This document shows positions 217 through 61,019 of a stretch of 64,000 nt of DNA, piece by piece; positions within the stretch are counted from its first letter, which is position 1, and each line of letters begins with the position of its first letter. The DNA comes from a virus (taxonomy: Duplodnaviria; Caudoviricetes). A model generated the notes under the pieces. That model was given only the letters and a program-made list of their open reading frames with translations. It was not told the origin of the DNA and did not search any database. The stretch covers positions 9,446-73,445 of the IMG/VR virus record IMGVR_UViG_3300001598_000048; one strand, given 5' to 3'. The position numbers and the translations under genes are program-made.

Positions 217-786
217 ATGATAATAAAATGTTACAACGAAAGTCATAAAAATTTAATTTTTCTTGATTTGGAATTTGAAAATAGAACACTTATACAATTT
301 GCGGGATTATTATTCACTTGAATAGATGACGAAACATATCAATTGACAAGAAGTTGTAATCAATATGTAACCGCAAAAGTTTGTTATCCTTTTATGGAGT
401 ATACAAGTATTACTACGAATTTTCTAGAAGAAAACGGCATTACACTTAGAGATTTACAAATTATCGTTAGAGATGATTTTTTAGCAGATGTAGATTTAGA
501 TGATACATTAGTTATTAGCCACGGTTTGCGCAATGATAGATTGATACTTGAAGAAAACGGCATTAATCTAATTTCGAAAAATGACAAACCCATCGATGGA
601 TATTGCACTTTTAATAATGCTCGTCGTATTTTAGAGCGCGAAAATCATGTCTCGGCTGCAGAACTTGCAGAGGAGGCGGGATATTATCTACATCACGCGC
701 ATAACGCATTTAACGATGTTTGGAGTGAAGTATCAATCTATACATTCTTAAAAAAGATAGAAAAACAAAAATTAGGAGATAAATAA
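217..786 (+). CDS. DEDDh 3'-5' exonuclease (DnaQ-like), 189 aa with TGA=Trp at 319
   Basis: ExoI FLDLEFE lies upstream of the TGA; ExoII SHGLRND and ExoIII HNAFND lie downstream, in frame with track ORF 343..786. Confidence 0.85.
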
Positions 787-1265
787 TGGAATTTTTATTA
801 TTAGACAAATTAAAAACCAATCAGGAATTTAATTATACTATGGTTGAATTTAATTTAGATTTGAATCAACATATGTTAAGTAATATCGCATATATAAATC
901 AAGTTTTTAAAGATTATTTTTCATCTGTTAGTTATACAGCAATTGAAACTGAATATTTAATAAGAATAAATATTGCGGATCAAATTGATGATGAGGAGGC
1001 ATTTTTCAGCAATGCGGTTAAAACGATATTAGCAAAATTCGTTGATAATTTCTGCATTTATGAAGGTCGTCCAAGAGAACATAGATTTGACATTCCTGAA
1101 AAATTATTAGATAAGATTATGATTAGTCGTTCACTTTTAAAGAAAATGATAAATCAAAAAACAAAAGCGGATCGAATTAATATTACTATTGTATGGAAAA
1201 CCGCAAATGAGAATTTTATTTATGAATTATTAAATACTAAACATCCAGGTGAAGCGCATGAATAG
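786..1265 (+). CDS. hypothetical protein
   Basis: Track ORF 159 aa, GGAG RBS, TAATG coupling to the upstream gene. Confidence 0.75.
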   Translation: MEFLLLDKLKTNQEFNYTMVEFNLDLNQHMLSNIAYINQVFKDYFSSVSYTAIETEYLIRINIADQIDDEEAFFSNAVKTILAKFVDNFCIYEGRPREHRFDIPEKLLDKIMISRSLLKKMINQKTKADRINITIVWKTANENFIYELLNTKHPGEAHE

Positions 1266-1752
1266 AAAATTAGATTTTTATACAGATGGAGCTTATTCTT
1301 CTAAAAGTGAAATGGGCGGTTGAGCCGCGCTTTGTATTGAAGAAGATGAAGTAATTAATACAAGAACTGGTTATGAACCATATTCAACAGGAAATAGATG
1401 CGAACTTTTGGCGCTCTTAAGTGCTTTAGAAGATGCAAACACTGTGGAAACAAGTAGAACAAAGATAACTATTTATACTGATAGTGCATATGTTGCGAAT
1501 TGTTTTGCAGATGGTTGGTATAGAAATTGGTTATCAAATGGTTGGAAAACTGCGGATAAACAACCAGTTAAGAATCAAGATTTATGGGTAAGAATAATTG
1601 CATTATATATTAAAATGAAAGAAAAACGTGATCTTGAAATTGTATGGATTAAAGGACACGCTAAAAATAAATGGAATGAATATGCGGATTTACTTGCCAA
1701 GAAACAGAGAATTTTATTAGAACAAAAGATGAAGGAGGCAGATGAAAAATAA
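1258..1752 (+). CDS. rnhA: ribonuclease HI, 164 aa with TGA=Trp at 1321
   Basis: FYTDGA...GG(TGA)AA, NRCELLA, IYTDSAYV, NGWKTADKQPVKNQDLW, WIKGH...NEYADLLA. Confidence 0.95.
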
Positions 1753-2291
1753 TGAAAATATTAATTTTAATGCCTTGCGATGAACAGCACGTTTATGCCG
1801 CAAGTGGTATATATAAAGCGCTTTCAGATGAAGTAAAAGATAAATGCTTTGTTATGCCAATGTTTATGGATTATTTAATTAATACGAAAATAGTTGGAAA
1901 TTGGATAATGGCTTTCTATGATGCTTTAATTAGTGCTAAGAATCTATGTAAAGCCGCAGATGAAAAAAATGATGATGTTATTATTATTGGAAATGCTCCA
2001 TCTGCCGTTAAATTTGATGCTGTTTTCAATTTTCAAGATATAGAAGAAGATATGGCTTATGAAGATAAGTTTATTGAAAAGATAAAAGAAATAGTTGCTG
2101 AAAATGAAAAATTAATCGGCTATGTTAATGATTTACATAAAGCCGAAGAAAGTAAAATGCCTTTGCATAATTGTAAGGCTACAGGCGAATTTTTATCTGC
2201 TTATATTAAAACAGATGCAAAGTTAAATTTATTAAAAGAAGAATACGAACAACGTCTTAATAGGAAAATTCCAGATGTTCTCGAAAGCTAA
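1752..2291 (+). CDS. hypothetical protein
   Basis: Track ORF 179 aa, GGAGG RBS, TAATG coupling. Confidence 0.75.
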   Translation: MKILILMPCDEQHVYAASGIYKALSDEVKDKCFVMPMFMDYLINTKIVGNWIMAFYDALISAKNLCKAADEKNDDVIIIGNAPSAVKFDAVFNFQDIEEDMAYEDKFIEKIKEIVAENEKLIGYVNDLHKAEESKMPLHNCKATGEFLSAYIKTDAKLNLLKEEYEQRLNRKIPDVLES

Positions 2292-3537
2292 TAATTTTGA
2301 ATTAGACCTTAAAGATTTGGATGAGTCTCAGCTCGCAGCCGTGACAAGTGCGGAAGAAAATGTCGTTATAAGGGCTTCGGCAGGTAGCGGCAAAACTAAA
2401 TCTTTAATAAGTGCGATTGCAAATTACAGATATGAACATATTAACGATAGGATTTGCGCAATTACGTATACTCGTGCCGCACGTTCTGAAATGGAAGAAC
2501 GTTTAAAAAATATGGGTATATTTGATGTAGAAGTTACTACAATCCACGTATGAGCCCGCAATCAATTAGAATTCTTTGCGGATCATTATGACTTCTTAAT
2601 CAATATTTTACAAGAATCGCAAATTAAAAAGATATTAAAGAATGAAATTGTGCCGCAATATCTTCTAAAATCTAAGGTTAAATCTGTTAATATTGATATT
2701 TTATATACTTATATCACTGGTAGTAAAAATATGGATATAAGTGATAATTATCGCCGCACACTAAATGCAATTGAAACAAGATATATAGATTATAAACGAA
2801 ATCAACATCTGTATGATTTTACAGATTATCCTTTATATCTATATGATGTATTAACTATTTATAATGAAAATATAAATACTATTGATGCTTTATTTGTGGA
2901 TGAGTTTCAAGACGTTGATGAAACACAATTTAAGATATTTGAAAAAGTTAATACAAATAAGAAATTCTTTATTGGCGATCCTTGGCAAAGTATATTTGTT
3001 TTTAGAGGAGCCGATGGAGAAGTTTTCAGCAAACTTGACAAATTTAAACAATATAAATTAAAATATAATTATCGTAGTTATCAAGAGATTATTGATTACG
3101 CAACTACTGTATATGATACACTAAAAAAAGATGTAGAAATTGAAGAAGAAAATCCAAATGGATTTTATATTTCAGAGATTAATTGAAGCGATCCGAGTTC
3201 TGTTATTTGTGATAGAAAATATGGTGGTTCAGTTACTGTTGTTAATCCTTATAGTGTAAGTTGAATTTTTACTGATACTAATAAAACTTATGTTGCATCT
3301 ACTCTTGAATTTAATAATATTATGACTTCTAATCCGATGATACTTTGCAGAACGAATAAACAAGTAAGAGAAATTCAGTCTTGTGGTTATATTAATGCAA
3401 GTACGGTTCATCAAGCAAAAGGATTGGAATATGATAATGTTATTGTTATTGATTGCGATATAAAATCAATGGAAGATTTGAATATTGCTTATGTTGCAAT
3501 GACACGAGCAAAAAACAATCTTTTTGTTATTAATTGA
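2275..3537 (+). CDS. UvrD/Rep-like SF1 helicase, 420 aa with TGA=Trp at 2551 and 3184
   Basis: Track ORFs 2275, 2650 and 3322 share a frame; motifs ASAGSGKT, VDEFQD, IGDPWQSIF, YNYRS, TVHQAKGLEYD, AYVAMTRAK. Confidence 0.92.
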
Positions 3538-6387: not shown

Positions 6388-6678
6388 ATGAAAATAGAAA
6401 ATAAATGTAAAAGTTGTAAACACGAAAAAGTTTGTCGATTTAAAGATGCATTTGAAGGTTCAAAAGAATTATTAGAAATATCAAGTAATTGGTTAGAAAG
6501 TGATAATTTTTCAATTGAATTAAAATGTAAACATTATGAAGAAGTATGGAGAAATACTTATGGAACAATTACTACAACACCATATTATAATGGCGGTTTT
6601 AAAATTAGTGATAATTTAAATTTTACTAATACACTTACTTCATCTGGAGATAATAATGGACAAAGTACAACGATTTAG
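6388..6678 (+). CDS. hypothetical protein with N-terminal CxxCxxxxxC
   Basis: Track ORF 96 aa, AGGAG RBS. Confidence 0.7.
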   Translation: MKIENKCKSCKHEKVCRFKDAFEGSKELLEISSNWLESDNFSIELKCKHYEEVWRNTYGTITTTPYYNGGFKISDNLNFTNTLTSSGDNNGQSTTI

Positions 6679-6994
6679 AGAAATTGTAAATCAAATGGCT
6701 GATTTATATGAAAAGAAAAATAAAAACTATGGTAATAGTTTTGGCGAATTATTTGAAAAACTTGGTCCAATATCAGGATTAGTTCCGCTTCATAATAAGT
6801 TAGACAGAATAACTAATTTAGTAATAGGCGGTAAAAATGATTTCGAATCAGTAGAAGATAGTTTAAAAGATTTAGCTTGTTATGCAATTATGAATTTAAT
6901 TGAAAGAGAATATCAAGAGAATAAATTAAAATCAGAAGAAACAAGTTATGAATGTGTAACTGAAATTGATTGGGGTAAAAAAAATGCAGAATAA
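6656..6994 (+). CDS. DUF1599 / nucleotide-modification-associated domain protein
   Basis: KKNKNYGNSF...NKLDRI...EDSLKDLACYAIM matches this family from memory. Confidence 0.7.
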   Translation: MDKVQRFREIVNQMADLYEKKNKNYGNSFGELFEKLGPISGLVPLHNKLDRITNLVIGGKNDFESVEDSLKDLACYAIMNLIEREYQENKLKSEETSYECVTEIDWGKKNAE

Positions 6995-7571
6995 ACCTCT
7001 TGGTTATTTAGGCGGAGATATTATGACTAAAGGCGCAAATCTTGCGCGTCAACAAGAGTATGATGAATTCAAGAAACTTGATATTGACGTTGATGTTTAT
7101 TCACCAGTAATGAATAAATCAATTAATGACAAAGCATCAATGACAGAAGAAGAAAATAATCATCTTGCGGAAAAAATTACAGATGCCGATATTGAAAGAT
7201 TATGGAATAGTGATTTTGTAGTTATGTGTCCAGAACAAAGCGCAATTGGCTCAATGTGCGAAACTGGCACACTTTATGGCTGGAAATATTTAACAAATAA
7301 GTTGTTATCAAAGATAAATGAATTACAAGAAGATGGAAAATCAGATAGAGAGATTTTGAGTTATTTATTTGGTGAATTAATGAGAATTCAAAATAAAGAT
7401 ATAGGTTATCATTACTTTGATATTAGAACAAATCACTTAAATGAAAAAGATTGGCGCAGAAGTTTTTCTATCAATCAATTATTATATGGTATGATACTTT
7501 ATTCATCATCTGTTGGTGATTTTGAAACCTTTGATGAAATAATGAGTAGATTAAAAGAAAAATATAAATAG
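6984..7571 (+). CDS. nucleoside 2-deoxyribosyltransferase-like protein
   Basis: YLGG...VYSP...DIERLWNSDFVV...AIGSMCETG matches the NDT/N-glycosidase pattern. Confidence 0.7.
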   Translation: MQNKPLGYLGGDIMTKGANLARQQEYDEFKKLDIDVDVYSPVMNKSINDKASMTEEENNHLAEKITDADIERLWNSDFVVMCPEQSAIGSMCETGTLYGWKYLTNKLLSKINELQEDGKSDREILSYLFGELMRIQNKDIGYHYFDIRTNHLNEKDWRRSFSINQLLYGMILYSSSVGDFETFDEIMSRLKEKYK

Positions 7572-7580
7572 GAGTTTAAT

Positions 7581-7763
7581 ATGAGTGAAAAAATAAAAAG
7601 TTTAATTTTTAACATTTTAGCCATTGTATTCATCGTAATAGTATTGGCAGCCGCCGTTTGTACCGCATGCGGTTTTCAATCATTGGTTTTATCAATTTTA
7701 ACATTGGTAAGTCTAATTGCTTTTATTACATTTGCTACTATTTTTAGATTTAAAAATAAATAG
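7581..7763 (+). CDS. small two-TM membrane protein
   Basis: 60 aa, two hydrophobic segments, AGGAG RBS. Confidence 0.7.
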   Translation: MSEKIKSLIFNILAIVFIVIVLAAAVCTACGFQSLVLSILTLVSLIAFITFATIFRFKNK

Positions 7764-7772
7764 GAGTAGCAG

Positions 7773-9053
7773 ATGAGTACTTTAATTTATAGCATTAGCG
7801 ATAAACCAAAAACCATTAAGGAGTGATGTTTATATACATTACAAATGGTTCTTGCTGTATTTGTTGCTACAGTATTAATTTCTGATATATGCGGAACTCC
7901 AGTCAGTGCCTGTTTAATTGGCGCTTGTATTGGAACAATTATTTATCAATTAATTACAGGATTTAAATCGCCTATGTTCATTTCAAGTTGCGGCGCCACA
8001 GTCAGTGCTGTTATTGGCGCACTTGCACTTCCAAGTATTAATGGACAAAACTATTTAATGGTAGTTTTTGGCGGTATTATTATTGCGATTGTTTATATGA
8101 TTTTTGCCGCCTTGTATCAAATTAAAGGCGCTAACTTCATTAATAAAATATTACCACCAACTATCGTAGGCTCAATTACAATAGTTATAGGTTTAAATCT
8201 TGCGGGATTTTTAATTACTTATACGCATGATAGTAATACTTGAGAAGTAATCGTTGCTATTTGCACTATGTTTGTAGTTGTGGTTTCATCGCATTATTTT
8301 AAAGGTTTTATGAAAACCATTCCATTTTTATTTGGTTTAGCATTTGGATATGTGTTTTGTTTAATATTAAAATTATTCGACATTAATATTATTAGTTTTG
8401 AATCTTTTAATAATTTACATTGATATCCAGAATTTACTTTCTTAAAATGGAATTCAGGTGATTTTAGTTGGTCTAATTTAGGACAAACAGTATTATTATT
8501 CTTACCAGTTGCTTTATGCGCTATTTGCGAACATATTTCAGATCATAAGACTTTATCTAATATAGTAGAACAAGATTTAATTGCAAATCCGGGTTTAAAT
8601 AAAACTTTACTTGGAGATGGAATTGCTTCTGCCGTTGGAACAATTACGTGTGGTTTACCTAATACAAGTTATGGTGAATCAATTGCAACAATAGGTTTTA
8701 GTAAAGTTGCATCTGTATGGATTACGACTGCGGCGGCCGCATTTATTGGTTTACTGTCATTTTGTGCGCCTATTACTGCTTTTATAGAAACAATACCAAG
8801 TTGTGTATTTGGTGGTTGCGCAATGGTCTTATATGGATATATTGCAGCAAGTGGATTAAAAACATTAATGAATAATAAAGTAGATTTAGAAGATAATAAA
8901 AATCTAACTATTGTATCAGTTGTATTATGCGTAGGAGTAGGTGGAATATTTTTATTTAGCGCATCTTTTGCTGGTGTAAGTTTAGCAATGGTATTAGGTG
9001 TTATTTTAAATCTAATTTTAAGGAATAAAAATGACGAAGAAGGAATTAAGTAA
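7773..9053 (+). CDS. uraA: NCS2-family uracil/xanthine permease (UraA/PyrP-like), 426 aa with 3 TGA=Trp
   Basis: Track ORFs 7845 and 8823 share a frame; QMVLAVFVATV, SSCGATV, EHISDH, LLGDG, PNTSYGES, GGCAMVLYGYIAASG; many TM segments. Confidence 0.9.
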
Positions 9054-10353: not shown

Positions 10354-12273
10354 ATGAAAACATATGATGAGAATAGTATTGTTACCTTAAAACCTCGTGA
10401 AGCAGTTAGACAAAGTTTAGGTATGTATATAGGTAGTAATGACACTACTGGTATGCATCATTTATTAACTGAAATTATTGCAAATGCAATGGATGAAGCT
10501 GCCGCAGGATATGGTAAATTAATAAAAGTTAATATTGAAACATCAACAAATACTGCCGTTGTAATTGATGAAGGTAGAGGTATACCATTTCATAAGAATG
10601 CATCTGGAAACTATGCAATAGTAGAAATGTGTACAAGTTTACATAGTGGTGGTAAATTTGAAGGTCAAGGAAATTATAAATCTTCATTAGGATTAAATGG
10701 TGTTGGTGCAACAGTAACTAATGCGCTTTCAAGTGAATTTGTTATACAGGTTTGGAGAGATGGAGAATATTGTATATTTGGCGTCTATGACGGAGAATAT
10801 GATGAACCAGTAATTGAGAAATATGCTGGAAAAATTCACGGTTCAATGATTAGTTTTATTCCAGATACAGAAATATTTGGCGATGCGAAATGGGATTTAG
10901 AAAAGATTAAAAATGAACTTCAACTTCACGCTTTGTTAAATAATGGAATTACATTTGAATTATGGGCAGATGGAAAAGAATGCGCAAAGTTTATCTATAC
11001 AAATGGAATTAAAGATATGTTGGCAATTAAGACTCAGGGATTAAATATGTTAACTGATCCAGTGTATAGTTCCGCCTTTATAACAAATGATGCTGGAGAA
11101 ACTTGTGATGTTGAATTTGCATTTGCTTATAGTGATAAAACATATGAAAGTATTTATTCTTTTGTTAATGGTGGTTATACACCTAACGATGGAACACACG
11201 TAACTGGTTGGAAAACTGCCTTTACTTCCGCCATTAATAAATTAGCGAGAGATAGTGAAGTTTTAAAAGATAAAGATAAAAATCTTGCAGGTGAAATTGT
11301 AAGAAAAGGTTTAGTATTAGTTTTATCTATTAAGATGAGTGAAAGACCGCAATTTGGTGAACAAACAAAGTTAACACTTAATAGTCCATCTGCTCGTGGT
11401 TTTTGTAGCAAAGCCGTTGGTCAAATGACTTTAAATGCAAAAGTAATAAAACAAATCTTAGATAAAATTATGATTGAACAAAAAGCCGAAGAAGCCGCAC
11501 AACGTAAACGTGAAGCTCAAGAAAAAATTGCTCGTGGTGGAAAATCTATGAACAGTTTAAGAGACCTTCCAGATAAATTAGCAGACGCTCGTGATTTTAA
11601 CGATGCGGAACTTTATCTCGTAGAAGGAGATTCTGCCGCTTCTGGTGCTAAATCTACGAAGGCGCCTAATATGGCTGTTTTGCCGCTACGTGGTAAAGTT
11701 AAGAATTGTACAAGTCTTGAGTTGGCAGATGCAATTAAATCAGATGTAATTAAAGATTTATTAACAGTTTTAGGTTGCGGAGTAGGCGATCACTTTAATA
11801 TTAATAATTTAAGATATAATAAGATAATTATTATGACCGATGCTGATTCGGATGGCGGACATATAGAATTGCTTCTAGTTACATTGTTCTTACATCATCT
11901 GCCTGAAATTATTAAGGCTGGTAAACTTTATGCCGCAACTCCTCCTTTATTTAGAACACAAAATAAAAAAGAAACTAAATATTGGAGAACTAATGATGCG
12001 GAATTTAATAAATATGTGCGTAATCATAAAGATTTAGAAATTCAAAGAATAAAAGGACTTGGTGAAATGGCGGCTCAAGAATTATATAAGACTACTATGG
12101 ATCCAGACAATCGTCAATTAGTTCAATTAACTACTGAAGATTTAGAGGCAACATTAGCATTATATGATAAATTAATGGGTAAGATACCTGCTTTAAGAAG
12201 AGAATTTATCTTAAAGAATAAATTATCATCGCTTGAAGATGGTGATTTCTATGATGATGATTTTGAAGAATAA
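10354..12273 (+). CDS. type IIA topoisomerase subunit B (GyrB/ParE-like)
   Basis: EIIANAMDE, DEGRGIP, LHSGGKF, GLNGVG, LVEGDSA, PLRGKV, MTDADSDGGHI, RIKGLGEM. Confidence 0.95.
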   Translation: MKTYDENSIVTLKPREAVRQSLGMYIGSNDTTGMHHLLTEIIANAMDEAAAGYGKLIKVNIETSTNTAVVIDEGRGIPFHKNASGNYAIVEMCTSLHSGGKFEGQGNYKSSLGLNGVGATVTNALSSEFVIQVWRDGEYCIFGVYDGEYDEPVIEKYAGKIHGSMISFIPDTEIFGDAKWDLEKIKNELQLHALLNNGITFELWADGKECAKFIYTNGIKDMLAIKTQGLNMLTDPVYSSAFITNDAGETCDVEFAFAYSDKTYESIYSFVNGGYTPNDGTHVTGWKTAFTSAINKLARDSEVLKDKDKNLAGEIVRKGLVLVLSIKMSERPQFGEQTKLTLNSPSARGFCSKAVGQMTLNAKVIKQILDKIMIEQKAEEAAQRKREAQEKIARGGKSMNSLRDLPDKLADARDFNDAELYLVEGDSAASGAKSTKAPNMAVLPLRGKVKNCTSLELADAIKSDVIKDLLTVLGCGVGDHFNINNLRYNKIIIMTDADSDGGHIELLLVTLFLHHLPEIIKAGKLYAATPPLFRTQNKKETKYWRTNDAEFNKYVRNHKDLEIQRIKGLGEMAAQELYKTTMDPDNRQLVQLTTEDLEATLALYDKLMGKIPALRREFILKNKLSSLEDGDFYDDDFEE

Positions 12274-12284
12274 ATAAAATTATC

Positions 12285-12313
12285 TTGACAAATATAAAAA
12301 AATATACTATAAT
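12285..12313 (+). promoter_or_regulatory. sigma70-type promoter
   Basis: TTGACA-N17-TATAAT. Confidence 0.85.
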
Positions 12314-12344
12314 ATAGTATAAATATAAATATATGGAGAAAAAT

Positions 12345-12623
12345 ATGGAAAACGAAAAAGAAACTCAACAAACTCAACAAATTCAAGGCTGGAAAGATGT
12401 TCAAATTAATGGACAATTACCATTAGAAGCTATTCTTAACTTCTTCAATATCTTAAATCAAAGACTTTGCACAGTTGAAGATTTAACTAAAGTAAGCGGT
12501 CCAGATGGAAGTGATGTAACTTTAACTGAATTATATCGTTTACAAACTGAAGAACAAATGAAACAAGCTCAAGCTAAAGCAGAAGAAACAAAAGAAGAAA
12601 CAACAGAAGAACAACAAGCATAA
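12345..12623 (+). CDS. hypothetical protein, Q/E-rich, lying between the topoisomerase subunits
   Basis: GGAG RBS before ATG 12345; within track ORF 12333..12623. Confidence 0.7.
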   Translation: MENEKETQQTQQIQGWKDVQINGQLPLEAILNFFNILNQRLCTVEDLTKVSGPDGSDVTLTELYRLQTEEQMKQAQAKAEETKEETTEEQQA

Positions 12624-12644
12624 TTAAAAAGGAGACAATGAACA

Positions 12645-14903: not shown

Positions 14904-14912
14904 AAAATATAT

Positions 14913-14941
14913 TTGCTAAAATGGAAAAAATATACTATAAT
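14913..14941 (+). promoter_or_regulatory. sigma70-type promoter
   Basis: TTGCTA-N17-TATAAT, spacer similar to the promoters at 5277 and 12285. Confidence 0.7.
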
Positions 14942-14998
14942 TAATTATATAAGGAAGTAGCCACATCTTTATATATTATTAGTTATAAGGAGTAAATT

Positions 14999-15265
14999 AT
15001 GGACGAAATTGTTTTAACTGATAATGGTAAAATAGTTTTAGCTTTTATGCAAAAGAACGATAAGATTTATGTTGGTAAAGACTTATCTGAATTAACTAAT
15101 ATTAAAGGTATCTATCCTGTACTTAACTCATTAGTTAAAAAAGATTTAGTTGAACCTGCAGAATCTATCGTTAGAGATTTTACTAATAATAAAGGCGAAA
15201 CTAAACCTAAAGAATATAAAACTTATCAATTAACTGAAAACGGTCGAAACTATATAATCAAATAA
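14999..15265 (+). CDS. hypothetical protein, winged-helix-like
   Basis: 88 aa; VLNSLVKKDLV...YQLTENGR resembles a wHTH. Confidence 0.6.
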   Translation: MDEIVLTDNGKIVLAFMQKNDKIYVGKDLSELTNIKGIYPVLNSLVKKDLVEPAESIVRDFTNNKGETKPKEYKTYQLTENGRNYIIK

Positions 15266-15313
15266 TAAACAAGTGGCAAATAAAATATAAATAAATAGAA
15301 AGGTAAAAGAAAA

Positions 15314-16174: not shown

Positions 16175-16185
16175 TTTAATATAAT

Positions 16186-16213: not shown

Positions 16214-16241
16214 AAATCAATTTTAGGAGATATAAATAGAT

Positions 16242-45297: not shown

Positions 45298-45316
45298 AAA
45301 TTACCTCCAAGCAATA

Positions 45317-45652: not shown

Positions 45653-45671
45653 AATATCCTTTCCTTTCTAT

Positions 45672-46373
45672 TTATTCTAAAGTTATATAATCTTCACCTG
45701 TATCTAAAACCTTAAAAATTAAATCTACGGTATTTGAAGATCTATATAAACTAATTGTTTTATCAATTGTAATAACACATTTTTCAATATGTATCCAACT
45801 TGTATTAGTTTCATCTTCTTTATTTCCAAGAATTTCTAAATCAAGTGTTAAATATTTATTATTATTTTTATTTAAACTGTATGCAAGAGTTCCTTCATAA
45901 GAATAGAAAATTAAATAACTACTATTCGCTTTTTGAAGAGTAAGTTCATGAGATTGAGTTAAATCAATTTCTCCTTCCGCTCTTTCTAAATTTCCTTCAT
46001 CATTATAAATAAACACTTGATAAATCTTGGTTAAAGAACTATCTAAAAAAATCTTTTTATTTGCATCTGTAATAAAATTTTTACTAACATTACATAATTT
46101 TACTTCAGATTTGAGGAAAATTAAATTCAAAATTTTATTTGTAAGTATTACGTTAGGTATACGAACTTCTGATACAGAATCTGCATAATAGCCTAATTGT
46201 TGTAAATCAGTTTTAGCTTTCTTTTCAATTTGTTTAAAATTTACAGTTGCTTCTATATCTTTTAAAACTGTATATGGTTGATTTCCATAAGTCATTTGAA
46301 CTTCGCCAATATTAGAACCAGAAAAAGATCTTATAATACAGTTCGCTTTATTACCAAGTTTATAAGTTTCCAT
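45672..46373 (-). CDS. hypothetical protein in the tail module
   Basis: Track ORF 233 aa, GAGGTG RBS. Confidence 0.7.
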   Translation of the reverse strand: METYKLGNKANCIIRSFSGSNIGEVQMTYGNQPYTVLKDIEATVNFKQIEKKAKTDLQQLGYYADSVSEVRIPNVILTNKILNLIFLKSEVKLCNVSKNFITDANKKIFLDSSLTKIYQVFIYNDEGNLERAEGEIDLTQSHELTLQKANSSYLIFYSYEGTLAYSLNKNNNKYLTLDLEILGNKEDETNTSWIHIEKCVITIDKTISLYRSSNTVDLIFKVLDTGEDYITLE

Positions 46374-46465: not shown

Positions 46466-46918
46466 AATTTGAAATCTATATGTAATATCTATCCAATCTT
46501 TATTATTTTTCTTATAGAACTTTTGATTCGTAGTTTTCTTATTTAACGGTCCAGCAGATGGAATATATGGACCAACTTTATAATAATCTAAAACAGATGC
46601 TAAAGTTTTATCAAATTCTTTTGAACCACTATACATCGCTGTTTTTAATTTAGGATATTTATTTTTAATAGCGATACTAAGTAATCTAATTTGATCGTGA
46701 TCTCTATCTCCACCCATAAAACATAAACAAGAAATATGCGGATTTGCATCAATAAGTTTACACAAAGAAACAATATTAATTGGAGTGCCATAATCGTTCG
46801 CGAGTCAAGGTTCAAAACAATCTTGACAATGACACGGACAATTAGTAATGTTAAGACATAATGTTATTTCATCTGGAACTTCAGTAAAAGTGATTAAAGT
46901 TTCCGCATATTTTAACAT
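46454..46918 (-). CDS. nrdG: anaerobic RNR activating enzyme (radical SAM), 154 aa with TGA=Trp at codon 38
   Basis: EVPDEITL...NCPCHCQDCFEP(TGA)L carries CxxxCxxC upstream of the TGA; CFMGGD; DYYKVGPY. Confidence 0.9.
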
Positions 46919-48774
46919 TCTTTTTTATCTACTCCTAGATACGCACGTTTACCTGCTTCGACTTGACGAGCCGCGCTAAATGAAGATACACGTTTTAGAT
47001 ATCCGATAATTCTAGTTGCATAATCAACATCATCTGAACCGCATTCTGGACAAGTACCAAAAGTATGTTTGCTAATATGACCACAATTATTACAGATGGT
47101 ATTCATAACATTATAAGTGAAGTATGAACATCCTTCAGCAACTGCAACGTCCATTAATTTACGATATTGTTCTGCGGTTAAATGTTCATCTAAATTATTA
47201 TGAAGCGCGCTACCACCATCACATTGACCTGTAAAATTATTTCCATGATAGCGGAATTTTTTAATTGGATCAATAGATTTATCTTCAACTAAATAGAAAT
47301 AAGAATTATAACAATCTCTTGGAACAATATAACCATCTTTTTTATCCCATTTTGCATTCTTAACGCCTAACGATTCCGCAGGAACAAATTCAGTATTAAA
47401 TTTAGCGTGTTCTTCTCTTGCGCTTACATTCATTTCGTGAATTGTATTTAAAATATCAGATGCAAACTGTTTATATTTGTCATTATTTGGATTAATTTCA
47501 ATTCCTAAAAATTCTGCTGCTTCAACGAAACCATTGATACCAATTGTTAAATATTGTCTATCTAAATCAATAAATCCGGCATCATAAATAGTTAATAATC
47601 CACCATTTTTATAATCCCAAATAATTTCATTAAATGCTTTTAAATATTTATGAATACGAGAAACTATTGCGGCTAAATATTCCTTTAAAGGAACTTGTTG
47701 TTCTCTATACCAATCTTGAACAATGCGGTTTAAATTCATTGTAATAACGCCTTTTGAACCTGTTTCAATTCCACCTGCGCCAAGTGTATAAGAGAAGATA
47801 TTATCTTCAATGCCGTTTCTAAGTCTGCAACAAGATGATAATGAATCTACACTTTCACTTTGATACATAAAGAACGATGCGCCTTCAGCCCACATTTTAC
47901 AAGCGAATGCCGCAGTTTCTGGATCTGAATATACGCCATTTGGAGTATGCATATTAACTGTTTCAACTGGGAAAGTTAAAATAGTTTTAAGACGTTCTTT
48001 ATTAAATCAATCAGCATAAAGTTTTTGTATTTCTTTTGTTGTTTTCCAACAAGGTTCATCTCCATCTGGAAATACGAAATCTTTAAAAATTGCTTCAAAA
48101 TAATCGTGATCGAAATATGCAATATTTAAGAATATTGATTGATATCCACGTGCACCCGCAGGTTGATTTACTGTATAAGTAATTTGTTCAAAATATTGTT
48201 GCAATTTTTCTCTTAATGTTACTTCTGGTTTTGATTGTCCCCATAAATATTCTACTGTATCATCTAAATGATTAATATAATCTTGACCATAATCAATACG
48301 TGCAAAATGATCAAAATAAGTTAATGCTTCTGGAGTTGCTGTTGCTCCTGCAAATTGTCCCGCAACGAGGAATACTAAATTGATAAAAGAACCGCAAAAT
48401 GAACGTAAATGTTTAGGCGCAGTTGATCCGCCACCAATTTTTGTTAATCCATCTAAAAGATATGGATATAATGAAATTGAACAGCAATATGGGAATATTG
48501 AAGTTTCATCGTGTTTATAAATAATATGATGTGCTAAATCAATTTCATATTGTTTTGCCAATTCCGCATTATATTTTTTAGTTAATTTTAAACGCATTAA
48601 TTCTCTATTGAGTGCGATAAAATTCTTTTTAGGCAATTCTGCCGCAAGTGTCGCAATATTTTTAGTTGCTACATTTGCATTTTGGTCTACTTCACTACCT
48701 GACGCCGCATTTTTGGCAATCATATAGTTTTGCATAAACTCAATTTGTTGTTCTAATGTTTGTTCTAAACTCAT
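46912..48774 (-). CDS. nrdD: class III (anaerobic) ribonucleotide reductase, 620 aa with one TGA=Trp at 48007
   Basis: YKHDE, PYCCS, SCCRLRN, EFVPAESL, CNNCG...CPECG, glycyl-radical loop TRIIGYL. Confidence 0.95.
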
Positions 48775-52983: not shown

Positions 52984-54054
52984 TTAGTTAGTAATTTTAA
53001 TTACAGCGTAGTTGTTAGCCATTGCAACGCCAACACCGAGCATTTTGTGAGCTTCCCATTTTTCTGAACCAGTAGCTTGTTCATTTCTCTTGATGTATAA
53101 ATCGCCTTTCATAGCAACTTTTACAGGTTTAGCTCCACTTGGGATTACGAATACATAATTGCTTGCATAAGCCCATTTATCGTTAGTTTTGTCTTCTAAG
53201 TAGTTAGGTAATTCAACAACGTTAACTCCTTTGTATACTTGAACGAAACCAACATTTCTAATATCCATTGAGTCTTGGTTATTAGGATATCCTGCAGCAT
53301 ATGTTGTATTAGCAATTGGGTTGTATAAGTTTTGTAATTCTTTATAGAAACCGAAAATTGTTGGAACGCCATATTGTTTTACATATTGCATAACAATATC
53401 AATTGCTGCTCCCATAGTTTCTTTAGTTGTTAAGATGTTTCTATTAGAATCATAGTTATGGTTTCCAGAACCACTTGTAGCTGTACCAACGATCTTTTCA
53501 TAAGGAGCGCCTGCAGCTGGTGTAGCACTGATTAATGCGTTATAAACTTCTTTATAAACGACTTCTTGGAATCCTTCAACGATGTTATTGAATAATTCGC
53601 CTAATGTAATAGTTCCAAGTAATAATTCTTCTAAAGTTACATAGATACCAACAGTATAAACATCAACTGGTAATGAGAAATACTTATTGTCTAATTTAGC
53701 AGCTCTATAGATACCGCCTCTTGCGCCTTTAGAAATAGTGAGTTTTGCACGTTTCTTTCCGATCTTTTCGATATCGAAAATAACTTCTGCGTCTCTTGCG
53801 AAAGTTTTAACTTCAGCAAATTGACCCATGATACCTTGAATCTTAGCAGGTAATACTTCATCTACTAATTCTTCAACGATTGCGAATGCACTAGCTTCAG
53901 CTCTTTCAATTTCTTTATAAGTCGAATTTTCAGATAAACCGATTTCTTTTGCTAAAGCGTTAATAGCAGCTTCATTAACTTCTTGTGCTGAGAAGTTTGT
54001 GCTAGGTTGATTAGTTAAAGCGGCGATAATGCCTTTTCTTAATTCGTTTGTCAT
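52984..54054 (-). CDS. major capsid protein
   Basis: 356 aa, strongly biased codons, position after protease/scaffold and before a terminator; GEFAEVK-like QFAEVKTF...ARGGIY segment. Confidence 0.8.
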   Translation of the reverse strand: MTNELRKGIIAALTNQPSTNFSAQEVNEAAINALAKEIGLSENSTYKEIERAEASAFAIVEELVDEVLPAKIQGIMGQFAEVKTFARDAEVIFDIEKIGKKRAKLTISKGARGGIYRAAKLDNKYFSLPVDVYTVGIYVTLEELLLGTITLGELFNNIVEGFQEVVYKEVYNALISATPAAGAPYEKIVGTATSGSGNHNYDSNRNILTTKETMGAAIDIVMQYVKQYGVPTIFGFYKELQNLYNPIANTTYAAGYPNNQDSMDIRNVGFVQVYKGVNVVELPNYLEDKTNDKWAYASNYVFVIPSGAKPVKVAMKGDLYIKRNEQATGSEKWEAHKMLGVGVAMANNYAVIKITN

Positions 54055-54072
54055 TTTCTTATACCTCTCTAA

Positions 54073-54591
54073 CTATTTAATGAACATATAATGATATGCT
54101 GTAGTTCCATCTGCTAAAGTTGTGCAAGTGAAAAAATCATCAGATTGACCAACACCGTCAGTTGAAGCGATAGAAACAATTCTTCCATATAATGGATCAG
54201 AAGCATTAGAACCTAATTCTAATGACATATCTGACATCCATTCATCACCAGGCATTAATTGAACTAATCTTAAGCATTCATGATTGATGTCTGTTGAATA
54301 GAATTTATTAGCATTAAATACTGTGTTTAATGGTTCATTGTAAACAATGAATAATGAATCACCAACGACTGGATCTTTGATACCATCTTTACCGATAGTA
54401 ACGATATGACCATTAGCGATATGATTAGTTGTAGCAGTAGATGTACTGTCTGCTAAATTATATTTTTCTTGTGTAAAAGTACTATTTGTTGAAGCAACTG
54501 GTAATTGAGAAACTACAAATCCAGGTTGTAATCCTTTTAAATTGTTAGGTTCAACTTGTTTGTACTTAGGTAAAAAATCATAAAGTGCCAT
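54073..54591 (-). CDS. putative capsid decoration protein
   Basis: 172 aa, between scaffold and MCP; QVEPNNL...GFVVSQLP. Confidence 0.6.
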   Translation of the reverse strand: MALYDFLPKYKQVEPNNLKGLQPGFVVSQLPVASTNSTFTQEKYNLADSTSTATTNHIANGHIVTIGKDGIKDPVVGDSLFIVYNEPLNTVFNANKFYSTDINHECLRLVQLMPGDEWMSDMSLELGSNASDPLYGRIVSIASTDGVGQSDDFFTCTTLADGTTAYHYMFIK

Positions 54592-54614
54592 AATTTTTTT
54601 ATAACCTCTTTCTT

Positions 54615-56411
54615 TTATTTGCGCATGTTTTTACGAACAAATGCGTCAAGTGAATTTTCTTCTACATTTTTAGGAGCAAATGTAGCAAAAGCTCTCATTG
54701 GTTTAACTGAAGATTCTTGATTTCTCTTATATGCTTTTAAAAGTTTTAATTCTAATTGTTCTTCAGTTGTTTCTTCTTGAGAAGCAAAATTCATAAATTC
54801 ATTAAACTCTTCTTCTTCAAGAGATTCCTTATAAGAGTTAACCAATGCTATTTTCTTTTCTCTTTTAAGGGTTTCAAATTCTGCTCTTTCACTTTCAGTA
54901 AATGAGGTAGAACTTGAAGTTTCTTCGATTGATTTTTGTTCATCGTCTACACTCACTTTCATATTAGTATTTGGAGCGATTTCAACATTTACATCTTGTG
55001 CTGGATTTTCTACATCGATTTGTTCGCATTTTTCGATACTAGGATGTCCTTCAGGTAATGGATCTCCTGGCTTAACGTCTGGATGATTTGCAGGTCTTTT
55101 ACATTTATCATCTTTTTCGTCTTCGCATTTTTTCTTATCGCCGCATGCGCATTCTTCGATTTCACAATCTTCTTTTTTCTTTCCACCACAAACACAATCT
55201 TCAGGATCTTTATCCTTTTCTGGACAATTTGGACATTCAGATTTTTCGCATTTTTTCTTATCGCCACAAGCACAATCCGATTTTTCTTCGCATTTTTTCT
55301 TGTCGCCACAAGCACAATCTTCTACGTCATCTTTGTCGTCTTCTTTGCCATCTTCCTTGTCATCTTTATCATCACAAGGACCGCATTCGCAGTTTTCTTT
55401 GTCAGTGCTTTCGCTTTCTGAACTAGAATCAGATTCTTCTTTTGTAGCACATAAACCAGCATCAGCCTCTTTGGCTTGTTCAATGTTTGTTTCATCTTTA
55501 GTCATATCGGTAGATACTGAGTTAACGATGTCTTCGTATGCAACGTGAACTTCGTTAATTCCACCTAGAGTAACTTGTCCATCTTCAGAGAAAGAATAAC
55601 CAATACGCATAAGTTTAGAAGTGCCTTCCATATAATAATAGAAACGAACAATAGCGCTATCGCTAAACATATCTACTATTGAAACAAATGCATCATTTTC
55701 GTACTCTTTACAAATGGCTTCGTTTACCTTTAGAGAAATATCACCCCAAGATAATTTCATGAATTCTGATAAATTCATATTTTCGCCTCCACGTTGAGTC
55801 TGATCTTGTTTATTTTCGCAATAATCTTTTAAGAGTTTCATTTTCGCTTCGAATTTTTCATCATAAGAGAAGAATTCAGAACCTGAAAATGCTGGTTTTT
55901 GATCATTGCCTAATACACTTACTCCAACAAATCTTCCTGCGGTGAATTCAATGTTTTTGAAGTGTTTCTTTTCATCGTAATTTACTACATACTTCACGCT
56001 GTTAGGGTCTAACTCTAAAGATTGCTTGTGACCAATAATCTTCTTTGCTAAATCGCCAACGTGGTCTGGGCGTTCTGTGTAGAGAACTACATCACAAACA
56101 CACCAAGTATTTCCATCATCATCTTTTTCAAAAGAAGAAGAAGTACATGGATCGACAACACCAAAAATTTCTTGTTCAGTAGCATGACCAACGAAATCTT
56201 CTTTTTCTTCGTCATAAAAACCAACAACAGGTGTATAAGGTAGAGTTTGAACTAATTCTTCAGAGAACTTGTCTGAGAAGAAGCGGTGATCCGCAGTTTC
56301 TCCCTTATAGAAAACCTTAAGTTTACCACGAGAAAAGTTTTCTTGTTTGGTGTCTGTTGAGAAATCTGATAGCCCAGCAGGTCAACTAAAATTAATTGCT
56401 TGCTTTTTCAT
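54615..56411 (-). CDS. prohead protease/scaffold, 598 aa with TGA=Trp at codon 10 and a Cys-rich repeat insert
   Basis: Manually translated from ATG 56411 (GAGG RBS): LPYTPVVG..DFVGHA...HKQSLELD; joins track ORF 55997; acidic C-terminal scaffold. Confidence 0.8.
55124..55320 (-). repeat. three CACGDKKKCE coding repeats, two of them a near-tandem 42-nt unit
   Basis: TCGCATTTTTTCTT(A/G)TCGCCACAAGCACAATC near 55247 and 55289; diverged copy near 55124. Confidence 0.85.
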
Positions 56412-56440: not shown

Positions 56441-57985
56441 TTATTCTGAATCAGAATTTGATTTTACTTCATTTTCTACAACCTCTGACTCAGTTGAGGG
56501 CTCATTCTCAACATTGTCCTTTTTAGAATCAGAAGTTTCTTCATTTTCTTTTTCAGTTTTTCCGCTAGTTCCTGAACGATCTTCCGCAGTTTGAGTATAA
56601 GATGTTTGCATAGGAACCATTTGGTCTAATTTTAAGAATTTTTCAAGATTAAAGTTATCTTGTATATTCTTTTGTTTTACACCTGATGCTATTAAGTATC
56701 CAAGCTTATCTACACCAAGTGTAGCGTTATCTTTATATACTTTTATATCATCGTCATAAGTATAAGTTGAAATTGGTAAAATGTCAATATCCGCTTGGAA
56801 ATCTTTAAAATCAAACCAATTATTGATAGTTATACTATAGAAATTAGAAAGTGCTTGTACGAATTTCCAAACATATCCTTTATCACGAATTAGTGACATT
56901 TTTAAAGCTTGAACACTTTCAGATGTAAAGATTCCGCTATTGAAACCCGCATTATTAAAGATTGCTTTGAAAGCTTTACTTAATACTTCGTTTTCAGATG
57001 TATCATTTTCAGAAATCTTATCAACATGAACGTCTCCATAAGTTGTAATAAGACGTGCTTTTTCACCTGTTTCAACAATTTTCTTTAATGATTTATGAAT
57101 AGCATCTACTTCATCTACTTCGAATATTAATTTATCTTCATAGTGAGGCATTGTGTGAACTACTATATATTTTAATAAGTTTTCATTTCTTTCTAATTCG
57201 TTATCTTGATAATGTTCATAATCAAGAATTCCGCCATATAGATAGAAGAAAGTTGGCATTGCAACATCATTTAACATTAAACCACTTGTAAAATGTGGAT
57301 CTAATACTTGCCAACGGAATGTTCTATCTTTTTCAAATTTATGATAAAGTTTAATAAATTCTGCTGGGAAAGTTTTTAGATATTCTTCTTTACTTATTAC
57401 CGCAGTTGAGCCTATTTGATCGAAATAAGTAAAATCGAATTCTATAATTGATGTTCCAAATTGAGTTTGTCCAACTTGACGACAGTATTTTGTTGGTAAT
57501 AAAATTGTATCAATTGCTAAAGTTTCTTCATCACAAACGGTAGTAAAATATACAGAACCAGTTGTAAAGAGAATAGATAATAATGCTGGAAATTTAGTTT
57601 CAATTGATAAACCATCAACAACTTCTAACATAGTATTATATGTTAACATAAAGTCATCTTCTTTTGGTTGTTTTTTAAGTTTTGCTTTGCTTTTTGTGTA
57701 TACTTTATGAGGTATAACTTTATATCTCCACATATACATATTAGCTAAATAATTGATAATTGAAGCGTAAATTGGATTTGCTGCATAAAGTTTACGAGAA
57801 GTTTCTGATAACTTTTCTACATCTCCAACATCAGCTCACATTGCGGCTCTAACTTGCGCCGCAGTAATAAAATCTACACTTTTATAATATGGTTTCTGAT
57901 CACGCAGTCTGGCAGCGGATGGTTCGCTTTCGTATAACTTTTTAAGTTTTTTAACTCGATCGATCTTAAATTGTTCTGTATTCAT
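56441..57985 (-). CDS. portal protein, 514 aa with TGA=Trp at codon 50
   Basis: GAGG RBS; SRKLYAANPIYASIINYLANMY; position between TerL and protease. Confidence 0.8.
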
Positions 57986-57994
57986 ATTTTACCT

Positions 57995-59803
57995 CTAATC
58001 AACAAGAGCAATAACTCTTCCTCTGCTCTTGCTTCGTTTCTTTTTATAATAATCTAATTCAAATTGTTGATTTACTGCCCAAACTAAATATTCTGCCATA
58101 GAGAAAAAGTCTTTTTGAATTTTTTCATTTCTACGCACAATACGCAATGTATTTGATAATTGGTCAGATGTATTAACAATATCAAGATTTTTTAATTCTT
58201 GTTCCATTTTATCCATTACTTTAAATGGCATTAAAAATTCTTGTTGTTTCTTTAAACTCATTTGAGTAAAAGATTTATTTTTACTATATAACGTAAGCGC
58301 ATCGTTTAGTTTAATTGGATAAGTAATTGCGCCTGTACTCATACGTGAAAAGAAGAATCAGTGAATTTGTTCTCCTGTTTTACCACCTGATTTAATTTCA
58401 TAACAGATGGTTTTATCTTTTGGATAACGAATAACGTCATGTTCTGTAGAAGTTGGCGGATTAATAATTCCAAGTCCTTCTAATAAAGCGCCATATTCAT
58501 CAGTTGTTTCTTTATTTAATCAGTCTCTAATGCCGGCTCCAACACCATTCGCATCGTATATTAGAAGTTTCGCACTATAGGTTAAAACCGCTTTTTTAAA
58601 CGAATTGGCAATAACCATATAATCAGTTGAAGGTATTGTAAATAAATTAACCATTTTATATGTAAAATAATGTTCTTTAGGTATAACTTTCGCTACACCA
58701 ACCGCAGTTTCTGCCGCACCATCTTTCGCCATATCGGCGCAGATGACATAGAAACAATCTTCTTCTTTTTGTGTTGCGGTTAATTTATCTTTTAATTCAA
58801 CCATTTTAATTTGTCTTAATGATGAAACAATGTTTGCGCTAAATGCGGCACCAACTGGTGCATCACTTCAACGAGATTCATATTCACGTTCAAATGAAGA
58901 TTTACTAAATGATGGTGCGTTAATAACATCTTCTATTTGTTTTTGGGCGGTTAAACCGCACGCTAATGGAATACGATATGTTCCACTTAATACCGTATAA
59001 TGAAGCGGATCAATTACACTTCGGCATAGTATTTCAATTAGTTTTTGATAAGCAAATGTTCCTTGATATCCAGCCGTTGTGATATATATTTGTTGAGATT
59101 GCGGTTCATTTGGATTAATTAATCCATTTGACATTTTACGAGGTTCGTTCAATAATGGAATATAAACTTCATTTACTTTAATTTCATCTTGTTCAATTAC
59201 TTCTTCAAATATTAATGATTGTCTACGTAAACCACGGACATTTCCTAAACCTAATGAAGAACCATTTTTAAAATTAAATTCTACATAGTCTTTACCCATT
59301 GTATACGGATCGAGTAATTTTCCCGCAATTTTACGCTTTTGCATTTCATTTGCGAGTAATGGAAATTTTACCCATAAGTCATCAACTACTTTCTGTTTAG
59401 CAATTTCTGCCGCTTGTTTATTTGTTCCGGCAGTAATTGTTGTATGATGACGCGGAATTTCCATACAGGTGAAATAACGATTTAAATCGGCTAAGAAAGA
59501 TTTTGATGTACCACGTGAAAAAGTATCATATGATGCGTTACTTCTTGACATGGTACGTATTATCATTCTTTGGAAAAAGAACAGATGAAAATGAGATTTA
59601 TGCGGAGTAATAATATCGGTAAATATATCTGGATAAACTATAAGTTCATTTAGATAATTGCCGACTTTTTCAAAGTTTTCATTAATGCGCTTTTTCGTAA
59701 GAAAACCAATGGCGGCATGTTCGTCCTCATCTAGAAAATTAAAATATTCTTCTATTTCAGGATCAATATAAGTTTCATCAAAAATATCATCAATTAAAGG
59801 CAT
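57995..59803 (-). CDS. terL: terminase large subunit, 602 aa with 3 TGA=Trp
   Basis: FSRGTSKS, LIFEE, ITTAG, FEREYESR(TGA), nuclease motifs CADMAK and IYDANGVG, KDFFS; three track ORFs in one frame. Confidence 0.9.
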
Positions 59804-60837
59804 TATAAATCCTCCGGATTCGCTATAACTGTCTTTGAAGGTATTTTTTCCGCATCTTCAGAGAAATCGATATTAAGCGCTTCTGCATCTTCTTCTGTCG
59901 CAATCTCTCCATCTTCAGGTGTAAATTGAAGAAGATCTTCAATCTTTTGTTGTTCTGTAATTTGTCTTGCGTATTCTTCTTCTTTTGTTTGCTTTTGTTG
60001 TTGAATCATATCTTCAAGTAATTGTTGTAAACCAGTTGATTCAAGAATAAGTTTGCGGTTTGCTTCTTTGATATCGGTAATGGCGCGATCTACTTCGTCT
60101 TTATCGGCACCTTGGAAGTATTTAAAAATGAAACCGCTATCTTCCATATATTGATATAATTCCGCAACCGTTGTTATATCATCTGTACGAGTTTCATTTA
60201 TCATGGTTTCAAGATCCGCTTGTTTTGCGAATGTTGATCATGCACCACTAAAATCTTTAATGGCTTTCGCATCTTTTGCACGAATAGCTTCATCCATTTC
60301 AACTTGCAGTTTACAGAGCGTTTTTACCGCTTCTTTTTGTAAAGGATTTGTTATACTATTTGCTTTAAGCGTTTTTGTATAGATACTATCAAGTTTAATA
60401 ATTTCTTCAAAAGTATATTGATCACCTCACTTAAGACGACCACGATCAATGTAAGATTCTTTGATAGGTTCTATGCGGTTTAAAATTTCCATTAAAGAAC
60501 GGCATTTCTCTCATTCTTTATTTGTTTTTGATCAAAGATCACGTGTAGAAGTAGTATAGAATAAATTTTTCTTTTCTGTCTTTTCTTCTATCATAAGAGA
60601 AGTATATTCTCGGAAGACATTTTGTCCGGCATCTTTGCTCAATTCGATTCATAGTTGCGGATCAAAAGGTAGATTATAGGTACGACAGAAAAAATCCGCA
60701 TGTTCAATATTATTGTAATTTAGGTTTTCGCCAATGCAATCAAAACAAATTGATGTGCCGCTCAAAGGATTGTTTGAGAACATTAATTCTTTCGTTTTGC
60801 CGCATTTCGGACATCGATTGTATTCAAATTTTATCAT
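59803..60837 (-). CDS. putative terminase small subunit / conserved protein upstream of TerL, 344 aa with 5 TGA=Trp
   Basis: N-terminal CPKC...CFDC; joins track ORFs 60837 and 60204; TAATG coupling to TerL. Confidence 0.7.
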
Positions 60838-60865
60838 AGACTAGTAATCATCTCCTTACGATGAA

Positions 60866-60894
60866 ATTATAGTTCAAATGAAATAAAAAATCAA
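60866..60894 (-). promoter_or_regulatory. sigma70-type promoter of the packaging/head operon
   Basis: TTGATT-N17-TATAAT, then AAGGAG RBS. Confidence 0.7.
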
Positions 60895-61019
60895 AAATAA
60901 CTTGCGGAACTTTTATCGGGATTTGAAGGAATTTTCACCGCAAAGTTTGTCTGTTTGTCCGAATTCTTGCGATGTTTTTATAAAACTGAAAAAGTTTTCG
61001 GCAAAATAGTCGAAAAAAT

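Follow-up and report, generated by a model that had tools for sequence, protein, structure and literature searches.

The pentamer CCGCA, which reads TGCGG on the opposite strand, occurs far more often than base composition and codon usage predict in a 64,000-nucleotide stretch of phage DNA (hereafter the window; all positions refer to it). The window spans bases 9446–73445 of the 73,445-bp IMG/VR phage record IMGVR_UViG_3300001598_000048, labelled G000. The word is enriched at the level of the DNA duplex, is specific at five positions, turns over among related phages and is weak in the lineage of the putative host. CCGCA/TGCGG is a genuine five-base-pair DNA word, accompanied by GCGC as a weaker companion, and we tentatively regard it, at a probability of about 0.45, as a dispersed recognition word that is kept dense by selection.

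The G000 record is linear, with a GC content of 28.7% and a completeness of 66% as estimated by CheckV, and represents an AT-rich gut or rumen phage. It has no nucleotide match in INPHARED, and the nearest named relatives of its polymerase are SPbeta-type YorL proteins (37% identity). Its coding fraction reaches 94% only when TGA is read as sense, compared with 77% under genetic code 11, and code-4 gene calls were therefore used for all coding nulls. In the codon-preserving null, synonymous codons were permuted within each gene over 300 shuffles, so that proteins and per-gene codon usage stayed fixed. This null is conservative, because it retains the raised GCG, CCG and GCC usage to which the word itself gives rise.

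The tetramer CCGC/GCGG forms a field dispersed over both strands of the whole window (1–64000), with 247 sites there and 278 in the full record of 73.4 kb; 153 and 171 of these, respectively, are CCGCA/TGCGG, about one per 430 bp. An earlier reading of the same DNA, made from the sequence only, had counted 20 tetramers in 1–2760 and 28 in 58441–60960, and both counts were reproduced exactly. They correspond to a 7.5-fold excess over the 2.7 expected at 29.6% GC and to a 7.2-fold excess over 3.9 expected. For the whole window the expectation from composition is 54 sites and the excess 4.6-fold, so that the excess stands whereas the tenfold figure proposed by the sequence-only reading was overstated. 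That reading had also assigned 14 of the first 20 sites to CCGCA; on recount, 15 of the 20 are CCGCA/TGCGG. With a maximal-order Markov model the tetramer excess shrinks to 1.9-fold. It survives shuffling with amino acids and codon usage kept: CCGC/GCGG is found 266 times versus 133.8 under the codon-preserving null (z score 15, 2.0-fold) and is the highest-ranked tetramer. CCGCA/TGCGG is the highest-ranked pentamer (163 versus 59, z 16, 2.8-fold), and the most enriched hexamer is CCGCAA/TTGCGG (68 versus 21.5). As had been proposed, the sites are created by synonymous choice. CCG is used in 20 of 30 cases before CA, GCC in 32 of 89 before GC, and GCG in 80 of 381 (21%) before G as compared with 6–12% before A or T.

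The identity of the enriched word was then delimited with the same null. Only two of the ten NCGN classes exceed the null, CCGC/GCGG (+132) and GCGC (+47); ACGC, TCGC, CCGA and ACGT are neutral, and CCGG, TCGA and CGCG are depleted. Equal enrichment of other GC-rich tetramers, which the sequence-only reading had named as grounds for refutation, is thus seen in part, and GC-rich words are not raised in general. GCGC comes close to CCGC/GCGG at 1.9-fold, and CGCA, CGCC and GCCG are raised 1.5–2.1-fold, at least part of which comes from overlap with the pentamer, but CCGG (0.53 of null), GGCC (0.26), CGCG (0.60), GCCC (0.47) and CCCC (0.56) are depleted. Simple clustering of G and C is ruled out by these deficits. 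Of the pentamers, CCGCA is the most enriched (2.8-fold), followed by GCGCC (2.2-fold), CCGCC (2.1-fold), GCGCT (2.05-fold) and GCGCA (1.95-fold); CCGCT/AGCGG reaches 1.3-fold and CCGCG 0.5-fold. Each position of CCGCA was examined at sites where it is free to vary synonymously and the other four positions match, and the choice of the motif base was compared with codon usage. Positions 1 to 5 were pushed toward the motif base by factors of 4.7, 5.0, 6.8, 4.9 and 1.4. On the other strand, T precedes GCGG in 89% of opportunities versus 66% expected, and A in 20% versus 51% expected (0.38 of expectation). Therefore the unit is the pentamer TGCGG/CCGCA, since each of its five positions is pushed to the motif base; the flanks outside it show no base specificity. 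That the choice of a base depends on four neighbours, in both directions, implies that a sequence-specific macromolecule lies behind the word.

The pressure acts on the DNA double helix and not on mRNA or protein. CCGC is enriched 3.8-, 3.4- and 3.1-fold in frames 0, 1 and 2, and GCGG 1.3- and 2.2-fold in frames 0 and 1, so that all populated combinations of frame and orientation are enriched. The absolute excess is alike on coding and template strands (+71 and +61), and intergenic DNA holds 12 sites versus 2.5 expected. A codon-pair effect at the level of translation is ruled out by the excess in each frame, in both orientations and in intergenic DNA. Arrangements of higher order were also considered. 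Hairpins or repeat elements built from GCGG...CCGC were discarded, as there is no surplus of close pairs. Even same-strand spacing was rejected as well, with a marginal short-gap deficit for CCGCA (P 0.035) and none for TGCGG. Finally, TGCGG is not flanked by a one-sided GC-rich tract; flanking GC is 0.302 (5′) and 0.316 (3′), like that around control pentamers.

The word is shared by the close relatives of the phage. A search with the polymerase yielded four relatives in IMG/VR, together with one contig from the bin "MAG: Bacilli bacterium MAG140". All pairs of relatives are just 71–78% identical in nucleotide sequence; their synonymous sites are therefore effectively independent, and for the same reason no relative is close enough for polarising substitutions. 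Against the codon-preserving null, CCGC/GCGG is the top tetramer and CCGCA/TGCGG the top pentamer in L002, L003, L005 and L006 (1.9–2.9-fold), and both rank second in L001, where support is weak (z 2.5 and 3.1). The word is absent as an enriched feature from the distant relative L004 (33% polymerase identity), where it stands at 0.39-fold. The 92-kb relative G002, which is 80% complete, carries 419 sites, 4.2-fold over composition. In codon-threaded alignments of orthologues, 16–29% of the sites are shared with G000 in position and orientation, versus 6–9% under the null, at a synonymous codon identity of 0.45–0.50. Sites thus turn over while their density holds, which argues for a continuing pressure and not for inherited sites.

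The putative host is an uncultured Bacilli metagenome-assembled genome (MAG) that uses code 11 (G001, sample L009–L069). This assignment is based on the one binned contig and on the homology of a PnrA-like gene: the PnrA-like lipoprotein of the phage has hundreds of homologues at 61–69% identity, several of which lie on long chromosomal contigs with a Bacilli MAG label. Over the first 224 kb sampled from the MAG, CCGC is 1.14-fold and CCGCA 1.37-fold over composition, with a CpG observed/expected ratio of 0.64. At the Bacilli chromosomal loci L072 and L073, CCGC is 1.1–1.5-fold and the CpG ratio 0.52–0.66. Over the chromosomes of the host lineage the values are 1.1–1.5-fold for CCGC and 1.4–1.9-fold for CCGCA. 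Mirroring of a host genome signature was rejected on the amplitude of CCGC in the MAG and at the two loci, which compares with 4.4-fold in the phage. A 578-kb sample of the MAG, from which the phage contig and three flagged contigs had been taken out, was compared with the codon-preserving null. TGCGG and CCGCA are 1.53- and 1.55-fold enriched, AGCGG is at 0.71-fold and GCGC at 0.76-fold. This host preference for T over A before GCGG, of low amplitude, hints at a host-linked cause. The pair TGCGG/CCGCA ranks 20th of 509 pentamer pairs for enrichment in two orientations. The strand skew of TGCGG in this sample does not exceed composition (fraction on the G-rich strand 0.65, versus 0.67 from base skew), and the comparison with a skewed, over-represented host motif proposed by the sequence-only reading thus gave a 1.5-fold word lacking strand skew.

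Three MAG contigs flagged for high CCGC (L012, L048 and L062) share no homology with the phage. One of them, L012 (G001:C4), is a 5.9-kb contig carrying an N-acetylmuramic acid recycling operon (NamZ, MupG, AnmK, MurQ-like). It has 10 CCGCA/TGCGG sites versus 4.0 under the null (2.5-fold, z 3.5) and shows neither GCGC excess nor CAGC depletion, which fits local variation of a weak host tendency and not a hidden host with the full signature. In the MAG the words that are both most skewed to the coding strand and over-represented are TGGTG, TGGTGG and CTGGTG; TGGTGG occurs 256 times and its complement 19 times, and the former exceeds the codon null 1.6-fold. These words resemble the core of Escherichia coli Chi, GCTGGTGG, and may either stem from a codon artefact or represent a polar word candidate for the lineage.

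In the reading that we favour, a continuing pressure on the double helix keeps CCGCA/TGCGG in excess across a TGA-recoded, AT-rich phage clade. The density of the word would count, and individual positions would not. A sequence-specific DNA enzyme, belonging to either host or phage, would read the word, for example a scanner associated with end processing, recombination, priming or packaging. We infer both selection for recognition as the cause and the kind of enzyme that would read the word. Several observations weigh against this reading. No reader protein has been identified, the G000 record is incomplete, and the link to the host comes down to a single binned contig and the homology of the PnrA-like gene. 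The highly expressed head genes and the tail module of G000 do without the word, so that it is not required everywhere. No strand polarity is seen in any 10-kb bin (top-strand excess of +44 for TGCGG and +56 for CCGCA in total), and once regional density is allowed for, spacing is Poisson-like and not regular. Moreover, the palindrome GCGC and related CGC words are raised too, a pattern that a signature of mutation or repair would explain no less well than a single binding word.

The sequence-only reading had taken the sites for host Chi-like sites. Under such a proposal TGCGG would be the Chi of AddAB in the uncultured Bacilli host, and a high load of it would help the phage to limit degradation from DNA ends or to draw on host recombination; we find this doubtful. 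The Chi sites of Firmicute AddAB/RexAB, namely AGCGG in Bacillus subtilis, GAAGCGG in Staphylococcus aureus and GCGCGTG in Lactococcus lactis and streptococci (PMC5959072, table 3), have a GCG(G) core in common. TGCGG is likewise a short GC-rich word with a GCG core in an AT-rich genome and lies one base from AGCGG. The host MAG contains an AddA-like open reading frame (ORF) of 1197 aa (133 bits, under the family cut-off), the host too favours TGCGG over AGCGG, and a circularly permuted genome would suit enrichment in two orientations. However, the phage favours T specifically, and not A, as the first base. AGCGG shows no enrichment of its own and is if anything avoided (35 versus 33 on the coding strand, with A before GCGG well under expectation as given above), GAAGCGG occurs in 3+4 copies, GCGCGTG in 0+2 and GCTGGTGG in none, and the co-enriched GCGC is a palindrome. 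Chi-rich phages are an established class that comprises lambdoid phages without Rec modules, the LLS class and P1 (PMC3784561, PMC12315714). Like them, G000 carries a short host-type word far above expectation within coding sequence and denser in phage than in host. Unlike in G000, the word of these phages is the experimentally known host Chi, is polar and is clustered near DNA ends or between ori and pac. In G000 the word shows neither polarity nor terminal clustering, with a TGCGG/CCGCA excess that is similar across the 10-kb bins of this 66%-complete record. It is equal in both orientations, and the putative host has no polar excess. Chi-rich phages also lack recombinases, whereas G000 has its own, a Sak-type single-strand annealing protein (16242–17003, + strand; PF06378, E 1.6e-33), along with a RecJ-like single-stranded DNA exonuclease of its recombination/replication set (20083–21891, + strand; phrog_2484, E 8e-127) and a DEDDh exonuclease; the annealing-protein class of lambdoid phages avoids Chi (PMC3784561, PMC12315714). 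The Chi proposal is therefore weak, since it fails four hallmarks: identity with a known Chi, polarity in the phage, a polar excess in the host and the lack of a phage recombinase. What is retained from the sequence-only reading is that synonymous choice writes the excess, that it lies at the level of the duplex and that a sequence-specific reader or process is implied; a Firmicute-type host Chi is not. A dispersed recognition word, the reading preferred here, follows the logic of the Chi-rich phages and differs in that the word is non-polar and is not the B. subtilis Chi. The word also resembles the DNA uptake signal sequences of Pasteurellaceae (core AAGTGCGGT), which are non-polar, dispersed and mostly coding and whose core contains TGCGG. 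Those sequences are, however, 9–12 bp long with conserved flanks and are a property of the host genome, whereas here specificity ends at 5 bp and the host shows 1.5-fold; an extended motif of 9–12 bp was looked for and rejected, as the flanks lack specificity.

Biased repair or mutation is the main rival to selection for recognition, though we judge it unlikely. A host or phage activity that favours C:G over T:A within SCGC(A), such as T:G mismatch correction of the very-short-patch type or protection from deamination, would let the word pile up without function. In E. coli, Dcm and Vsr raise CCWGG-related words and lower CTAG. The excess in G000 is comparable in being a strand-symmetric, DNA-level excess of a short word and its relatives that would not need any function of the word. 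It is dispersed in a Poisson-like manner, the raised family consists of CCGC, GCGC and CGCC, and each synonymous change that makes the motif is a transition from a favoured A- or T-ending codon. In addition, the CpG observed/expected ratio is 0.89 in the phage versus 0.52–0.66 in host-lineage DNA, the host deviates in the same direction at low amplitude (TGCGG 1.5-fold, AGCGG 0.7-fold) and encodes two C5 methyltransferases, and the G000 tail module, apparently a recent acquisition, lacks the signature. Unlike in the Dcm/Vsr case, profile searches gave no match to PF00145 (C5), PF01555 (N4/N6) or PF03852 (Vsr) in the incomplete G000 record, none to PF00145 or PF01555 in the 80%-complete G002, none to PF00145 in the relatives, which are also incomplete, and none to Vsr in the MAG, itself incomplete, despite its two C5 enzymes. 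The T-containing donor words, all of them abundant, show mild deficits (CTGC/GCAG 0.92, CCAC/GTGG 0.85, CCGT/ACGG 0.93 and GTGC/GCAC 0.97 of the codon-preserving null). The head genes of two diverged phages also lack the word, whereas repair would hit all genes unless overridden by codon selection. We favour selection over biased repair because the pentamer is sharp, is kept in diverged relatives and has an amplitude well above that of the host. It is improbable that the word is a passive by-product, in which avoidance of restriction-type words and A/T runs, together with codon-context habits, would push sites into CCGC/GCGG. The avoided words (CATG, AGCT, GTAC, GATC, CTAG, GGCC, GCWGC and CAGC) are indeed strongly depleted, with 0.41 of null for CATG, 0.46 for AGCT, 0.55 for GTAC, 0.57 for CTAG, 0.72 for GATC and 0.26 for GGCC (a range of 0.26–0.72 for the restriction-type words), 0.68 for CAGC/GCTG, 0.53 for GCAGC/GCTGC and 0.76 for A5/T5 runs; the deficit of CAGC/GCTG recurs in each of the five close relatives (z −3.4 to −5.2). 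A constrained Monte-Carlo null holding 13 avoided word groups at or below their observed counts lifts the expectation for CCGC/GCGG by 40 sites, from 134 to 174±8. The observed count is still 266, that of the pentamer is 163 versus 76±5 (from 59) and that of GCGC 100 versus 49. Avoidance therefore accounts for some 30% of the tetramer excess and no more, and it predicts neither the five-position specificity nor the intergenic excess. A modification mark, with CCGC (the AciI word) or GCGC (the HhaI word) enriched as the target of a phage methyltransferase or base-modifying system, is very improbable. Both enriched tetramers are targets of 5-methylcytosine (m5C) methyltransferases, and the phage carries a DUF1599 gene, a weakly matching deoxyribosyltransferase-like gene and a nucleobase permease. 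However, this self-mark, raised as an alternative by the sequence-only reading, finds no C5 or N4/N6 methyltransferase in either the 66%-complete record or G002, m5C targets tend to decay and not to accumulate, and the phage would hardly avoid restriction-type palindromes so strongly if its DNA were globally protected. The sites may instead be bound by a phage protein, the other alternative of the sequence-only reading.

If the word is a recognition signal, its interest lies in what reads it. Words that phages deliberately over-use are rare windows onto the DNA-scanning enzymes of their hosts, and to our knowledge Chi is the sole well-understood case, known almost entirely from enterobacterial phages. 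We found no account of a CCGCA/TGCGG word in phages in the literature. Codon usage in these phages is about 85% A/T-ending, yet the pressure suffices to override it, and the word extends across most genes of a clade of uncultured phages with a recoded stop codon. A bolder proposal, which we hold to be unlikely but worth stating, is that TGCGG/CCGCA is the non-polar recognition word of a new DNA-scanning activity in uncultured AT-rich Bacilli or their phages, and that many unrelated AT-rich gut or rumen phages load it. The activity may come from an enzyme of the AddAB type whose Chi is new and tolerates either orientation, or from a sensor in defence or counter-defence; if so, the word would represent a new class of dispersed phage genomic signal. 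Should a reader enzyme exist, the word would identify it and give a handle on recombination or defence in bacteria not yet grown. Should biased repair be the cause, phage DNA would here bear the clear footprint of a sequence-specific repair process. In either case the word can serve as a compositional marker that separates these phages from host DNA in metagenome bins.

The density of the word varies along the genome. The densest zone (56441–62169), with 6.5–10.6 sites/kb, comprises a GIY-YIG gene, the portal gene (phrog_2739) and the two ORFs lying upstream of the latter; these ORFs (57995–60837) are the presumed terminase and match solely PHROGs of unknown function. The genes of the two topoisomerase II subunits (10354–14903, + strand) have 5.8–6.8 sites/kb, with 13 sites each versus about 5 under the null, and the NrdD gene (46912–48774, − strand) has 8.1 sites/kb, with 15 versus 8.2. 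The word is nearly absent from the tail module (31277–46373, − strand; 0–2 sites/kb), which comprises a 1858-aa fibre-like gene, baseplate-region genes and the tape measure gene. The sparsity in the 5.6-kb tail gene (32276–37852) that had been noticed earlier corresponds to 4 sites. This module has a GC content of 22–29% and a GC content at third codon positions (GC3) of 8–9%, much below the remaining genome. Its orthologues in G002, 32–43% identical, carry 4–5 sites/kb. The tail module is word-poor in G000 only, where its GC3 is low, which suggests that it was recently acquired as a mosaic segment. The putative major capsid gene, a scaffold-like gene and neighbouring head genes (52984–56411, − strand) have a high GC3 (16–23%) but show no excess (2, 0 and 5 sites). 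The two sites in the putative major capsid gene (52984–54054) bear out the scarcity already remarked on there, and the capsid and scaffold-like genes are word-poor in both G000 and G002. Across orthologues, the per-gene densities of G000 and G002 are modestly correlated (rho 0.39, P 0.01).

The genes of G000 include those for an ATP-dependent ligase, the two topoisomerase II subunits, a DnaB-like helicase, a Toprim primase and the RecJ-like exonuclease. The phage also encodes a 1351-aa polymerase of the SPbeta YorL type (37% identity), the Sak annealing protein, the DEDDh exonuclease and NrdD, and its structural genes include those for the portal and tape measure proteins. TGA behaves as a tryptophan codon in G000; the codons aligned to it in G002 are TGA (24) or TGG (10). 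Within 217–62169, TGA codons sit in structural genes and in many small or early genes, with 20 in the 1858-aa tail gene, and the core replisome genes (10354–26224) have none. G002 has a tRNA with anticodon TCA (L078:7202-7296), and no tRNA is present within the 73 kb of G000.

A second word, CAGATG/CATCTG, is over-represented in G000: its 112 sites compare with 61 under the codon-preserving null (z 8), and a dinucleotide model puts the excess at 5-fold. CAGATG predominates on the coding strand (65 versus 35 in the window). A nucleotide-related module (6656–9053 and 28211–29401) contains DUF1599, a nucleotide modification associated domain, the weak nucleoside 2-deoxyribosyltransferase-like gene, an NCS2 nucleobase permease gene with 3 TGA codons and the PnrA/Bmp nucleoside-binding lipoprotein gene, and may serve base salvage or DNA modification. 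Finally, the GIY-YIG nuclease domain forms the C-terminus of an ORF with 8 TGA codons (61186–62169), which is transcribed divergently from the adjoining presumed terminase ORFs.

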